From positions 1-52,885 of IMG/VR virus record IMGVR_UViG_2802429241_000010: 52,885 nucleotides of DNA, one strand, 5' to 3'. Positions 9,684 to 51,486 of the stretch are shown here, piece by piece; the stretch's first letter is position 1; every line of letters begins with the position of its first letter. The position numbers were made by a program, and so were the translations under genes. This DNA is from a virus (Duplodnaviria; Heunggongvirae; Uroviricota; Caudoviricetes). The notes under the pieces are model-generated. The model searched no databases and was not told the origin of the DNA. It worked only from the letters and a program-made list of their open reading frames with translations.

Positions 9684-9738
9684 TTGATTTAATGGTGCCG
9701 ATAATAGGAGTCGAACCTACGACCTTCGCATTACGAAT
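9684..9738. repeat. Prophage att direct repeat, distal copy (partial tRNA-Thr 3' end)
   Basis: 55 bp ttgatttaatggtgccgataataggagtcgaacctacgaccttcgcattacgaat matches 51431–51486 with a 1-nt indel; sequence diverges immediately after. Confidence 0.85.
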
Positions 9739-10210
9739 TATAAGAATCCGCTTCTAATTCAAAGCATTACCCCATCAACACTGCGCTCACACGTCCCACC
9801 ACATCAAAACATGTAAAGCCTTGCAAGCCATTGCGAGGCCTTATGTGTCTCAGTTTTGTCCCACCTTGTATTACGACTTGCATAGCCAATGAAGATAAAC
9901 GTGACGACAAACGACGCAGCAGTCTTCTTTTCTTTCACACTTTCCCCACCCAGCATGCATACCTTTCCGCCATGACTGAAGTGAATGCCTGCTATGAGCG
10001 TGGATTGGCCCAGACTCAGACAATGAGAGAGCACGGTGCTAACACCCAGACACGTCACCAGCCAGGCAACAACAGATGAGTACATGGCAACATTTTGGAA
10101 GGTATCTTCGTATCATGATGTGGTTAAATAGACATAATTTAACCCAATGGGGTTATACCGCCTTTAGGCTGTGTGTCTATGCACTCTCAAAGCCCAGGAA
10201 GAGACACCAC

Positions 10211-10828
10211 TTACTCCAGTGTTCCCTTGATGGCAATGCCTTGAGGTATCCGAAGATCATCAAACTTGGCCGATGTAATGTTGCGATCTCCAATTGTGCA
10301 TCGGAACAGTTCCAGGAAGAACCGATAAGAGGTCAGGTTGCACGAATCGTTAAGTATTCGGCTACTTGTTCCAACAATCTTCGTTGCGGAAGCGCAGCGC
10401 ATCCCTGACTTCGTATAGGTAAAAACAAACGAAGCCGGGGTAATATTTAGCATTTTGTCGCACTGTCCCAGCAATTCTTTGTGACCTTGTGCTGTCATTG
10501 CAATACCTTCATCAACTCTCTTTGACTGAATCAAAACCCCCTTTGAATAGGTGAGCTCTGGTGTTGAGATTGAGACATGGAGCAGCATGTCAGCACCGAC
10601 CTTCTTTTCTTCTGCTGCTACCCCCTTACGGTGCCTTAGAATGGATGAAGACCATGTTACACCACCAATTTCTTCGGAAAACACAGCATCCAACCGGCCG
10701 ATCAGTACCCCTGTTATGTCGTCTTCATCCGTGACCAACCCATTAGAATACTTCAGCATCGCACCGCTGACTGCACGATCTGCTGCGTGTGCTGCTTCTT
10801 GGAAAGCTTGTTCAAGGCTACTTTTCAT
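10211..10828 (-). CDS. Hypothetical protein (prophage cargo, no recognised domain)
   Basis: 205-aa ORF between the att repeat and the kinase gene. Confidence 0.5.
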   Translation of the reverse strand: MKSSLEQAFQEAAHAADRAVSGAMLKYSNGLVTDEDDITGVLIGRLDAVFSEEIGGVTWSSSILRHRKGVAAEEKKVGADMLLHVSISTPELTYSKGVLIQSKRVDEGIAMTAQGHKELLGQCDKMLNITPASFVFTYTKSGMRCASATKIVGTSSRILNDSCNLTSYRFFLELFRCTIGDRNITSAKFDDLRIPQGIAIKGTLE

Positions 10829-11184
10829 TATTTATCCTCACTCCAGCTCAATCCTGAGCCAAAAAACTGAAACATTTGCTATCCACTTTGTGTAATGACC
10901 ATATGGTTGCAGGATGCTCTGAATACCCGCTTCTGGCATTAAGCGGTTATTTTGATAGGTCAGTAAGTCCACCGACGCGGTAACGTGCTCTCTTACCTCG
11001 GCGGCTGTAAGCGAGAAGCAGATGTGTCAGTGTGCTGCAGGCAAAACGGAATACCAAAAGATAATAGCCGAAAAACACCTGATTTGTATATGCTTATCAG
11101 AATATGAACGCTATATAACACACTTTCCTTGTACACTGTAGCGACCAATTAAGTATTAAATACGCTGCCACAGTAGTTGGAATA

Positions 11185-12621
11185 TTATTTAATGGTTCTT
11201 CGGGCAGAAGCATACTGAGCAAATTTTGCGATTAGCTTTCTGAATTCATTTTCCCCCACATTCTGCCAAGCATTATACGTCTGGCTTATTCTGTTATAAG
11301 TTGATGACTTGCAGAAAAATACAAAACTACCTTTTATATACCTGCTGACAATTCTAGCGGTTTCAGGTAGAGGTTTACCTTGATACTCATTTATTTCCCA
11401 GCAATCTGGAGGTATGTAATTTCCAGGCGTAATTTCAACCATGTATTCATCCATCGTTGAACTAGTAACGGGACCCGAAATTTTCATTGGTTCGATTACT
11501 TCACATTCAAGACGAAAATAATTCCATTCGGGATCATGACCAAATGATTCAAATGAAAGTTTTTTGGGCTTTAAAATTTCAGCGCATCGTTCACAGACTA
11601 TAAGCGCGATAAATCCTTTTTCTGAGGCTGGTTCGACATAAATCAAATCGCTTCCCCCACCGGAAGGATAAAACATGTGATTTAGAGACTCCCTTCCAGC
11701 TATTAAATTGAGTATGTTTATTATGTCATCATTATTTGTCCACTCTACACTATTCGGTGTGCTGTATGGAAATAGTAGGTTTTGGATTTCGAACCATTCA
11801 GTTAAATTACGCTGGATGAAATCATTATTAATTTTTATCCAATTTTCAAGTTCTGTCTTAAACTCCGCAGCAGTTGGTCGCTGATACGGATCGTTATCTG
11901 TTGCGCGCACTAATAGGTCATCTAAGGGCGGTAGATATAGTTCTTTTATGTAGTTTGATAATCCGATATTAGATTTTGTGCTGTACTGACCATCAAAACC
12001 AAGATAGTCTTTAGTCAGAGACATCCATACTGATTTTGCCAGAGAGTAAATGTCTGCCGGGAGCCCATCAGCACGATTTGCTATCCGTCTCATTTCTGGG
12101 GCCATTGTGAATTTTGCGCCAACGTCTCGCATATCGGGTGTTAATTCGATTCTTTCAGGATATTTTACCAATCCAAAGTCCGCTAAAAATATCCTGCCAT
12201 TCAAATATAGAAGATTATCTGGCTTTATATCCCGGTGAGATATGTTTTGGTCATGGAGTTCTATAATGGTTTGAGTGAGATGAATGAATTCAGAGATGAT
12301 TGATAATGGATCTTTTTGCTTTACACTTTCTTTAAAGCTTTCAGCCAATGGCATAAGATACCAAGCTTGTTCTTTTTTTGCATTATCTGGAAGGTAAAAA
12401 TCAAGCAAAGGCATTACCCCATCTACTTTATTATCTTTCAAGAAATTAACTTCTACCTTGAATCTATTATAAGTTGATTCTTGTACATTTCTTAGTATTT
12501 TTAAAGCGAATGCTTCCTCGCCAGAACTTGAAGTTACAAGATACACATCTCCGTTCCCTCCGTCTCCTATGAAATCTTTTATGATATACCCATCAATTGG
12601 ACATGAAATTTTAGCATTCAT
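11185..12621 (-). CDS. Eukaryotic-like Ser/Thr protein kinase with uncharacterised C-terminal domain
   Basis: 478 aa; Gly-loop GDGGNGDV, catalytic Lys in ALK, catalytic loop HRDIKPDNLL, DFG, APE; C-terminal ~200 aa unassigned; strongly AT-rich. Confidence 0.85.
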   Translation of the reverse strand: MNAKISCPIDGYIIKDFIGDGGNGDVYLVTSSSGEEAFALKILRNVQESTYNRFKVEVNFLKDNKVDGVMPLLDFYLPDNAKKEQAWYLMPLAESFKESVKQKDPLSIISEFIHLTQTIIELHDQNISHRDIKPDNLLYLNGRIFLADFGLVKYPERIELTPDMRDVGAKFTMAPEMRRIANRADGLPADIYSLAKSVWMSLTKDYLGFDGQYSTKSNIGLSNYIKELYLPPLDDLLVRATDNDPYQRPTAAEFKTELENWIKINNDFIQRNLTEWFEIQNLLFPYSTPNSVEWTNNDDIINILNLIAGRESLNHMFYPSGGGSDLIYVEPASEKGFIALIVCERCAEILKPKKLSFESFGHDPEWNYFRLECEVIEPMKISGPVTSSTMDEYMVEITPGNYIPPDCWEINEYQGKPLPETARIVSRYIKGSFVFFCKSSTYNRISQTYNAWQNVGENEFRKLIAKFAQYASARRTIK

Positions 12622-49731: not shown

Positions 49732-50036
49732 TGACCACTTTTACCGACAAAGAACTGATTAAAGAAATTAAAGAGCGTATCAGCAGCCTTGACGTGCGAG
49801 ACGATATTGAGCGCCGTGCTTATGAAATCGCACTCCTATCTCTGGAAGTAGAACCAGATGAACGCGAAGCTTATGAATTATTCATGGAAAAGCGTTTTGG
49901 TGACTTAGTAGATCGTCGGAGAGCAAAAAACGGCGATAACGAATACATGGCATGGGATATGACTCTCGGTTGGATCGTCTGGCAGCAACGAGCTGGTATC
50001 CATTTTTCAACAATGTCACAGCAAGAGGTGAAATAA
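49731..50036 (+). CDS. YfdT-like protein
   Basis: 101 aa; conserved order. Confidence 0.6.
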   Translation: MTTFTDKELIKEIKERISSLDVRDDIERRAYEIALLSLEVEPDEREAYELFMEKRFGDLVDRRRAKNGDNEYMAWDMTLGWIVWQQRAGIHFSTMSQQEVK

Positions 50037-50386
50037 TGGAGCCATACAGCCTCACACTCGATGAGGCCTGTCATTTTCTCAAGATATCCAGACCGACTGC
50101 CATTAACTGGATACGCACAGGGCGTCTTCAGGCAACACGCAAAGATCCCACTAAGAATAAATCTCCTTACCTCACAACACGACAAGCCTGCATTGCGGCT
50201 CTTCAGTCTCCGCTGCATACTGTCCAGGTGAGCGCGGGTGATGGCATAACAGAGGAAAGAAAATGTCACTCTTCCGCAGAGGTGAAATATGGTACGCCAG
50301 TTTCACATTGCCGAACGGTAAAAGATTTAAACAGTCTCTTGGAACAAAGGACAAAAGGCAGGCGACAGAACTCCATGACAAGCTAA
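50036..50386 (+). CDS. Putative excisionase / DNA-binding protein
   Basis: HTH-like N-terminus ([26 protein letters not shown]); immediately upstream of and overlapping the integrase start; 3' extent uncertain. Confidence 0.5.
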
Positions 50387-51426
50387 AGGCTGAAGCATGG
50401 CGGGTCAGCAAACTTGGTGAAATACCTGATATAACGTTCGAGGAAGCGTGTGTCAGGTGGCTTGAAGAGAAAGCACATAAAAAATCACTGGACGATGACA
50501 AAAGCCGGATCGGATTCTGGCTTCAACATTTCGCAGGAATGCAACTAAGAGACATTACTGAATCAAAAATTTATTCAGCAATGCAGAAAATGACGAACCG
50601 GCGTCATGAGGAAAACTGGAAACTCAGGGCAGAAGCATGCAGAAAAAAAGGGAAACCTGTTCCAGAATACACGCCAAAACCAGCGTCCGTTGCAACGAAG
50701 GCTACGCATCTTTCATTTATAAAGGCCCTACTAAGAGCCGCAGAGCGTGAATGGAAAATGCTGGATAAGGCACCAATTATTAAAGTGCCTCAACCAAAGA
50801 ATAAACGGATCCGCTGGCTGGAGCCCCATGAAGCACAAAGGCTGATTGATGAATGTCCGGAGCCATTAAAGTCTGTTGTTGAATTTGCACTGGCAACAGG
50901 TTTAAGACGCTCGAACATCATCAACCTTGAATGGCAACAAATAGATATGCAGCGCCGGGTTGCATGGATAAACCCGGAAGAGAGTAAATCAAACCGCGCA
51001 ATCGGCGTTGCGCTGAATGATACTGCATGTCGCGTTTTGAAAAAACAAATCGGGAATCATCACCGTTGGGTATTTGTGTACAAGGAAAGCTGTACCAAAC
51101 CAGACGGAACGAAAGCGCCAACAGTAAGGAAGATGCGGTATGACGCAAACACAGCCTGGAAAGCGGCGCTGAGACGAGCTGGTATTGATGATTTCAGATT
51201 TCACGACTTGAGACACACCTGGGCAAGTTGGCTGGTTCAAGCCGGAGTCCCGTTGTCAGTGTTACAGGAAATGGGTGGCTGGGAGTCTATCGAAATGGTT
51301 CGTCGATATGCTCACCTCGCGCCTAATCACCTTACCGAACACGCACGGCAAATAGACTCGATTCTGAACCCATCGGTCCCAAATTTGTCCCAGTCAAAAA
51401 ATAAGGAAGGTACTAATGATGTGTAA
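50263..51426 (+). CDS. Tyrosine integrase
   Basis: 387 aa; N-terminal [21 protein letters not shown]; catalytic R…HDLRHTWAS…VRRYAHL; ends 14 bp from tRNA-Thr. Confidence 0.9.
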
Positions 51427-51430
51427 CTTA

Positions 51431-51486
51431 TTGATTTAAATGGTGCCGATAATAGGAGTCGAACCTACGACCTTCGCATTACGAAT
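51431..51486. repeat. Prophage att direct repeat, tRNA-proximal copy
   Basis: 56 bp matching 9684–9738; covers the 3' 46 nt of tRNA-Thr plus 10 bp beyond its 3' end. Confidence 0.85.

Follow-up and report, generated by a model that had tools for sequence, protein, structure and literature searches.

A CP4-6-like island end and an apparently intact SfV-group prophage in tandem at the tRNA gene thrW

Tandem occupancy of tRNA sites by mobile elements is already documented, and each such site raises the question of how its occupants came to share one gene and whether any of them is still complete. Here, we analysed a stretch of 52,885 nucleotides from the IMG/VR virus record IMGVR_UViG_2802429241_000010 (the window), in which the threonine tRNA gene thrW is abutted by the integrase gene of a prophage whose far end meets the tip of an island resembling the element CP4-6 of Escherichia coli K-12. 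We estimate a probability of about 0.9 that two unrelated integrative elements stand here in tandem and share the 3' 46 nt of thrW, the right-hand one being an apparently intact phage of the SfV group.

Which sequence do the two elements share? The sole tRNA gene in the window is a tRNA-Thr(CGT) gene at 51441-51516 on the minus strand (called by ARAGORN and Rfam), identical to K-12 thrW over 76 nt. An Rfam search of the whole window at the gathering threshold returned only this tRNA, and no sRNA or structured RNA accounting for the low-GC (guanine plus cytosine) islets described below. thrW is the integration site of SfV-group phages and of P22 (PMC3851460, PMC3636060). A 46-nt att core has been published for SfI, SfII, SfV and SfX (PMC3636060), and a 46-bp attP site is also described in PMC3851460. 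The published core matches exactly at 9693-9738 and at 51441-51486. The longest exact repeat measures 48 bp (9691-9738 = 51439-51486), its right copy comprising the 3' 46 nt of the tRNA gene and bases past the tRNA 3' end, and the similarity reaches 9676-9738 and 51423-51486 when one mismatch and one 1-nt indel are allowed (alignment of 9664-9758 with 51411-51506). Alignment, tRNA calls and the match to the published core thus confirm an earlier proposal made from the sequence (the original prediction) that a 55/56-bp repeat duplicates the 3' end of thrW. A 31-nt probe of the core found exactly two matches in the window and none in 100 dinucleotide-preserving shuffles, so that a chance match, the alternative to be considered for the distal copy, is excluded. 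A core search of the whole window found no third att copy.

Where within the repeat did recombination take place? We aligned seven att sequences: attL and attR of the window, SfV attP, the unoccupied site of strain ET734, K-12 thrW, attR of M8 and attL of LR882050. Common to all seven is only the tRNA-derived core plus 1-2 bases. At attL, which together with the intact thrW gene for tRNA-Thr(CGU) spans 51423-51516 (minus strand, core 51441-51486), the P' arm at 51423-51440 and about 35 further aligned bases toward int (from ~51388) are identical to SfV attP. The distal copy, attR (9676-9738, minus strand, core 9693-9738), doubles as the thrW 3' copy on the island side. Its B' arm (9676-9692) carries flank alleles of the ET734 type, its left flank from 9528 to 9692 is of the ET734 island-tip type, and on its other side lies a 125-bp phage P arm (9739-9863), colinear with SfV 20591-20467 on the gtrA side of attP. 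The arm alleles thus segregate, with SfV P' at attL and SfV P plus an ET734-type flank at attR, the pattern expected of strand exchange within the tRNA-derived core. The 10 bp past the tRNA end that the original prediction had counted as duplicated are part of a loosely conserved motif, GTAACnnnTTGATTT, found downstream of thrW in every strain and in the phage attP. The similarity is present as described, but it reflects imperfect resemblance of the attP and attB arms (~10-18 bp) and not a duplication by the crossover. The full 55/56-bp repeat was rejected as the recombination core, since its extra bases are phage-type at attL and host- or island-type at attR.

How complete is the prophage between these two sites? 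Counted with one att copy it is 41,747 bp long (about 9739-51440), and a DNA search named Shigella phage SfV and its relatives as the nearest deposited phages. In blastn comparisons with SfV, window 9676-9863 aligns with SfV 20655-20467 (95.8% identity, gtrA side of attP) and window 44793-51486 with SfV 27279-20592 (int side of attP). The two colinear end blocks meet at SfV attP, so the prophage ends reassemble into this site. This colinearity and the pattern of the arms show that integration took place by recombination of attP with thrW inside the core. With all 53 SfV proteins (NC_003444 / U82619) as tblastn queries, the shared genes proved to be full length with 89-100% amino acid identity, and none of them contained a frameshift or truncation. 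Identity reaches 98.5% over 387/387 residues for Int, 98.6% over 147/147 for Xis, 99.6% for cI, 100% for Cro and 99-100% for the full-length counterparts of SfV orf28-33. Q, KilA-N, RusA, Dam, holin, endolysin, TerS and TerL likewise have full-length counterparts, and all neck, tail and baseplate proteins of SfV are present at full length (92-100%). The two ends of the SfV genome (cos) abut at window position 34382/34383. The description of a complete prophage with its integrase abutting the intact tRNA gene is therefore upheld by the full-length SfV gene set and by ends colinear with SfV attP.

The same comparison bears on the mosaic composition that had been proposed, with lambdoid regulation and lysis, an HK97-type head and a Mu-type tail. 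Pfam domains agree with it in the regulatory genes (Phage_integrase, HTH_17, Peptidase_S24, Antiterm Q), the head genes (Phage_capsid of the HK97 family, Peptidase_S78, portal, TerL) and the tail genes (sheath, tube, DNA_circ_N, Mu GpP domains, Baseplate_J), and the SfV comparison supports it as well. Nor is such a mosaic peculiar to this prophage, since phages of the SfV group are known to be built in this way, and the SfV annotation itself carries notes reading 'similar to phage Mu'. With SfV and its group (SfI, SfII, SfIV) the prophage shares the thrW site beside proA, the mosaic, cos packaging with an adjacent HNH gene, and near-identical genes for tail and baseplate, Q, holin and both terminase subunits, TerS and TerL. 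Judged by integrase and Xis, att core and site, mosaic backbone and cos as read from the sequence, this is an SfV-group temperate phage, one that carries no gtr genes.

This last point marks a difference from SfV. The gtrA-gtrB-gtrV cassette, which stands beside attP in SfV, is absent from the window (no tblastn match for GtrA, GtrB or GtrV), so the backbone is SfV-like while the phage is not a serotype-converting one, and no serotype conversion is expected. The slot at 9864-13200, where SfV has gtr, is taken here by defence-type cargo, after which come a Pin invertase gene and an invertible segment with fibre genes. Also different are the alleles for portal, protease and capsid (25-28% amino acid identity), which represent another HK97-type set, and the O-like replication initiator; SfV orf42 is missing. 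The SfV genes orf47/48 (orf47 and a methyltransferase, in the slot between Q and holin) are replaced by a DUF6575 pair, and, unlike SfV, the prophage carries Bor, a different spanin and an extra 176-aa gene in the tail operon. This gene (21907-22437, minus strand, 34% GC), which lies between the tape-measure and N-like genes and is likewise absent from M8, belongs to phrog_5485, a family of unknown function. Its product has an N-terminal hydrophobic segment, and the gene could be a membrane moron lodged within the tail operon.

Could a prophage that looks complete nevertheless be fixed and defective, yielding neither excision nor particles, so that the locus is a static accretion? Many prophages at tRNA sites in E. 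coli are cryptic, among them K-12 CP4-6 at thrW itself, and in a close relative of the present prophage, that of LR882050, tail genes are frameshifted. The extra gene at 21907-22437 and the several module swaps relative to SfV could be taken in the same sense. Against this, the SfV-shared genes are all free of frameshifts and truncations, Int, Xis, cI and Cro share 98.5-100% identity with those of a phage known to be inducible, both att cores are perfect and cos is contiguous. Moreover, near-identical modules occur in the deposited phage records vB_EcoM-720R4 and 689R6. We thus consider a cryptic prophage unlikely.

Four points nonetheless weigh against a tandem of two elements with an intact phage on the right. 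Excision, induction and particle formation are predicted only from intact reading frames. The 176-aa insertion and the swapped portal-protease-capsid and replication alleles form a new combination, although each of them is found in other prophages at 97% identity. The thrW-integrating nature of the left-hand DNA rests on synteny with ET734 and K-12, and none of the complete E. coli genomes searched covers the left part in full (best 76% coverage at 92% identity).

For the tandem array we propose the following course of events. The phage attP comes with a tRNA 3' end of its own, and an SfV-type tyrosine integrase recombined it with thrW inside the 46-nt core. Integration rebuilt the tRNA gene from the phage-borne 3' half at attL, beside int, and left the displaced 3' copy at attR (9693-9738). 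This displaced copy also borders the end of the CP4-6-type island, whose tip has gained a restriction-modification pair and a solitary HEPN-like gene. Acting on attL and attR, Int and Xis would be expected to release a 41.7-kb circle and to leave thrW directly beside the islet, as it is in ET734. Lysogeny is probably held by a cI of SfV immunity (99.6% identity, with an S24 domain), and its LexA-like cleavage domain leads us to expect SOS induction. The anatomy of the locus, the homologies and the natural single-occupancy states are read from sequence, and Int and Xis activity, inducibility and any defence phenotype are predictions.

Do the two elements occur apart from each other in nature? 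The comparison with strains carrying one element at thrW, which the original prediction had called for, was run and revealed both single states. ET734 has the island, the restriction-modification pair and an intact thrW-proA region with no phage; it matches the window up to 9738 and then resumes as the window from 51487. M8 and LR882050 have an SfV-like prophage at thrW and no island, their attR lying 127 bp from the ancestral yagP remnant. Both elements are present in H7, which combines a CP4-6-like tip, an att copy and an SfV-like prophage; it has no restriction-modification islet and carries other cargo. Only H7 spans the island flank and the phage arm together when searched with a junction probe (9528-9863). 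Island-only, phage-only and tandem strains thus substantiate the proposed serial occupancy of one tRNA site by unrelated elements.

The order in which the elements arrived is a separate matter. The structure does not reveal it, because both elements use the same core and leave the same ends either way. The phage may have lysogenised an empty thrW first, contrary to the order that the original prediction implies, the island later entering the displaced 46-nt copy at attR, and the phage-only intermediates with attR beside the ancestral yagP flank (M8, LR882050) provide the state from which such a step would start. Island-only strains are equally available, however, as ET734 demonstrates, and CP4-6-type islands at thrW are widespread: some part of 1-9800 finds a match in 5,090 of the 5,426 complete E. 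coli genomes, a count inflated by paralogous modules elsewhere. The ET734 island-tip type of the attR left flank (9528-9692) fits either order. We therefore regard an arrival of the phage before the island as conceivable and somewhat doubtful.

A further question is whether everything from thrW to the far island end might be one composite element, mobilised jointly via the outermost att copy. The far island end carries a thrW copy beside an integrase in K-12 (49 nt) and in ET734 (46 nt), so that a third copy is expected to the left of the window. Three direct core repeats, two within the window and one beyond, would then be present, any pair of them a formal substrate for either integrase. Joint mobilisation is nevertheless very improbable: the two parts occur separately in nature, their combined size would exceed phage packaging capacity and nothing in the window links them functionally. 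The ET734 island (locus L011, NZ_CP100922 3668000-3714500) is itself composite: apart from two oppositely oriented CP4-type modules it contains Ag43, genes for sugar utilisation, a Qat system, an ABC-three-component system and the integrase beside the 46-nt thrW copy; it shows the extent of accretion at thrW.

The island accounts for the left part of the window. Only its thrW-proximal end (1-5539, plus strand, GC 54.8%), that is, the last 5.5 kb, lies within the window; it continues past the left window end, and the island integrase and the distal att copy lie outside, so that the island may be complete or may be the P4-family remnant named in the original prediction. According to Pfam, the end encodes on the plus strand DUF932 (1-825), a DeoR-type regulator (1034-1744), DUF4339 (1770-2306), DUF905 (3340-3576), an antirestriction protein (3662-4120), RadC/JAB (4136-4612), DUF987 (~4621-4842), the CbeA/YeeU antitoxin (4861-5178) and the CbtA toxin (5198-5539). 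This order is that of K-12 CP4-6 read from thrW (ykfI-yafW-ykfH-ykfG-yafX...yafZ) and also that of ET734. K-12 CP4-6, a cryptic element running from thrW to intF (262898-297205) and flanked by a thrW-derived att repeat, has the same terminal order directly beside its thrW 3' copy, and CP4-type islands such as CP4-44 and CP4-57 are its kin. The segment 2310-2831, overlapping an open reading frame for 187 amino acids with a signal-peptide-like N-terminus (2222-2785), is missing from the ET734 island, which is syntenic in other respects.

Between toxin and att copy, K-12 has nothing but the ykfN pseudogene, whereas here the two are separated by a 4.1-kb islet with a GC content of 42.8%, compared with 54.8% for the island. 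GC content, Pfam matches and the K-12 CP4-6 order thus bear out that an AT-rich islet and a CP4-type toxin-antitoxin and antirestriction module stand left of the distal repeat. At 5939-7647 the islet carries a pair of genes identified by sequence similarity as a Type II restriction-modification system, with a C5-cytosine methyltransferase gene (5939-7009, plus strand) and an HNH endonuclease gene (6988-7647, minus strand) that are convergent and overlap by 22 bp (Pfam DNA_methylase E 2.5e-68, HNH E 9e-11; PADLOC MTase_II/DruM and REase_II E 5e-21). The pair occupies the same place in ET734. Next to the pair stands a solitary gene for a 421-aa protein (8105-9370, plus strand) with an N-terminal Cys-rich beta domain resembling a zinc ribbon, a helical body and an invariant RNGIAH motif (Rx4H, HEPN-type). 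Neither ET734 nor any of the 5,426 complete E. coli genomes searched contains the 1.8-kb segment around it (7736-9527), and in these genomes 7650-9700 has no match beyond its flanks. A Foldseek search of the protein model against the Protein Data Bank (PDB) returned nothing. The protein is phrog_13366 and is found in Proteus prophages, standing alone between Q and the lysis genes.

On the other side of the shared att copy, beyond the conserved 125-bp P arm, the attP-adjacent cargo of the prophage has a GC content of 40.9%. The first gene inside the prophage beside attR (10211-10828, minus strand) encodes a 205-aa protein with a predicted PD-(D/E)xK (restriction-endonuclease-like) fold. Its AlphaFold2 model resembles PD-(D/E)xK nucleases (Hjc, RecU), and the residues D80...Q101-x-K103 are invariant. 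The protein falls into no sequence family; homologues with 56-89% identity range from Enterobacteriaceae as far as Rhizobium, and in other genera the gene stands alone in integrase or defence islands. It is followed by a gene for a eukaryotic-like Ser/Thr protein kinase of 478 amino acids (11185-12621, minus strand; Pfam Pkinase E 3e-21, domain residues ~9-260). In PADLOC the kinase matches mad6 (2e-25), PD-T4-6 (down to 2e-24) and Stk2 (5e-16), in each case over the kinase domain only, and the C-terminal ~210 amino acids have no match in Pfam or PADLOC. The same kinase gene occupies the same prophage slot in M8, MS 119-7 and CFIAFB20190172. A two-gene system of the 205-aa gene and the kinase was considered and rejected, as the homologues of the former stand without a kinase in Klebsiella and Sinorhizobium.

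The third cargo gene (13252-14025, plus strand) is CMoRE/PD-T4-3, a GIY-YIG Type IV restriction endonuclease, as identified by full-length similarity (PADLOC PD-T4-3 E 2.9e-140; E 7e-172 over residues 1-257 to PDB 9U75, the CMoRE of E. coli O157:H7) and by the GIYxY-YIG tyrosines Y17, Y19 and Y31. CMoRE has been characterised as a Type IV endonuclease whose action requires modified DNA, namely 5-hydroxymethylcytosine (5hmC) or its glucosylated form (ghmC) (PMC12923530), and according to the literature it is active in its native E. coli host. Between the kinase gene and CMoRE lies a 90-bp stretch (12963-13052) whose counterpart in M8 is annotated by RefSeq as a truncated 'capsid protein' pseudogene and which shares 84% identity with sequence lying between ecpE and ykgJ on the E. 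coli chromosome (locus L001, 4960-5049). It could represent a scar left by recombination or a small repeated element. Scanned for promoters and terminators, 5500-14800 did not exceed shuffled sequence in the number of sites, and we made no use of the result.

Adjacent to the cargo, a Pin/Hin-family serine invertase is encoded at 14083-14673 on the minus strand (Pfam Resolvase E 1e-51 plus HTH_7; annotated pinE in M8), next to an invertible tail-fibre segment of 1.86 kb (14699-16560) bounded by 20-nt inverted repeats (14699-14718 and 16541-16560). In the present orientation a fibre gene (16062-16844, minus strand) and an assembly gene (15460-16062, minus strand) are predicted to be expressed, and an alternative C-terminus (14664-15065) and a second assembly gene (15069-15488), both on the plus strand, would be silent. 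The fibre carries a Collar domain according to Pfam. In the near-identical prophage of M8, 15301-16560 is inverted, which shows that the fibre switch flips in nature. A serine invertase, inverted sites and two fibre C-termini with their assembly genes are also the hallmarks of the Gin/Cin/Pin/Hin switches (Mu G, P1 C and e14 P segments); SfV is without any invertible switch, whereas here the switch has been grafted onto an SfV-type fibre N-terminus.

A second cargo site lies between Q and the holin gene, where a two-gene moron (37096-38849, minus strand, GC 35%) consists of a 155-aa gene (38382-38849) overlapping by 4 nt a gene for a 429-aa protein (37096-38385; Pfam DUF6575 E 8e-37). PADLOC matches are PD-T4-10_A (3e-10, nearly full length) and PD-T4-10_B (1e-7, over ~100 N-terminal residues only), and gene order and the 4-nt overlap fit the PD-T4-10 A/B layout, so the pair is probably a distant relative of PD-T4-10 A/B, which PMC9519451 presents as a toxin-antitoxin-like abortive-infection system. 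The moron sits in the slot in which Stx phages carry their toxin genes.

The remainder of the prophage follows the SfV-group plan. The Mu-type contractile tail and baseplate module (16848-27347, minus strand; full length at 92-100% amino acid identity to SfV orf9-orf20, with Pfam support) encodes gp48, gp47/Baseplate_J, gp46, gp45, the GpP hub, a DNA-circularisation N-like protein, tape measure, assembly, tube and sheath proteins, DUF2635 and a terminator. It adjoins the head and packaging module (27344-34324, minus strand; Pfam, PHROGs), which includes neck and closure proteins, the HK97-family major capsid protein (28808-30013), the S78 prohead protease (30028-30714) and the portal (30656-31897), all three minus-strand Pfam assignments, as well as TerL (32091-33824) and TerS (33821-34324) on the same strand, with cos near 34382/34383 and the HNH gene at 34444-34791. 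The Bor lipoprotein gene (35269-35610, plus strand; Pfam Lambda_Bor E 1e-30) precedes a minus-strand lysis cassette of an Rz-like spanin (35642-36103; PHROG Rz), a GH24 endolysin (36100-36576) and a lambda-family holin (36580-36915), of which holin and endolysin match SfV S at 99% and R at 92%. The lambdoid early-right region (39418-45627, minus strand) comprises Q (39418-40170), DUF968, KilA-N, RusA, Dam methylase, a PerC-like gene, the O-like replication initiator (43540-44481), a YmfL-like gene and Cro (45430-45627). On the plus strand follow the cI repressor with its S24 (LexA-like) autocleavage domain (45718-46392) and the early-left region (46565-51426), which ends in xis (49943-50386) and int (50263-51426), the latter stopping 14 nt short of the tRNA 3' end. 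Beyond thrW lies the chromosomal flank, annotated proA (51632-52885, minus strand; 97% DNA identity in LR882050).

What does the cargo do for the lysogen? Among related prophages the attP-adjacent slot varies, being filled by the kinase, AAA ATPase/BRO-N/ImmA, AraC, acyltransferase or restriction-modification genes and others, and the cargo region 9676-14700 was not found in deposited phage genomes, the invertase excepted. The cargo probably serves the defence of the lysogen against other phages, a role that is established for CMoRE in other strains and that we extend to the remaining genes by analogy. Prophage and satellite defence hotspots are documented (PMC9122126, Rousset et al. 2022; PMC9519451, Vassallo et al. 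2022). The present prophage resembles them in having variable low-GC cargo at fixed backbone slots, beside attP and between Q and the lysis genes, and in the presumed defence genes themselves: CMoRE/PD-T4-3, a PD-T4-6-like kinase and a PD-T4-10-like pair. By contrast, the hotspots set out in the relevant sections of these papers lie in P2-like phages (two loci), P4-like satellites and an element of the integrative and conjugative type (PMC9122126, PMC9519451), and Vassallo et al. assign five more systems to P4-satellite or related-integrase, Mu-like and lambdoid prophages (PMC9519451). A limited literature search turned up no paper that identifies the slot beside attP in SfV-like phages as a hotspot of defence genes.

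The stacking of mobile elements at thrW is thus real but ordinary, and the elements are of known kinds. The value of the locus is that of a clean, fully resolved case of one tRNA gene gathering unrelated mobile elements via a shared 46-nt core; for annotation, it yields exact element boundaries and tells a crossover duplication apart from arm similarity. Its forward-looking value lies only in two conserved, horizontally spread and uncharacterised genes at the junction. We tentatively suggest, as a possibility we would not yet favour, that the two sides of the shared thrW att copy, the island tip and the attP-adjacent slot of the phage, form a two-sided hotspot and that the 421-aa and 205-aa genes are undescribed single-gene anti-phage systems. 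The SfV backbone is seen here to swap its lysogenic-conversion cargo, O-antigen glucosylation, for putative anti-phage defence. If the suggestion is true, phages of the SfV group would have given up O-antigen conversion in favour of a defence directed at nucleic acids, encoded in the same slot.

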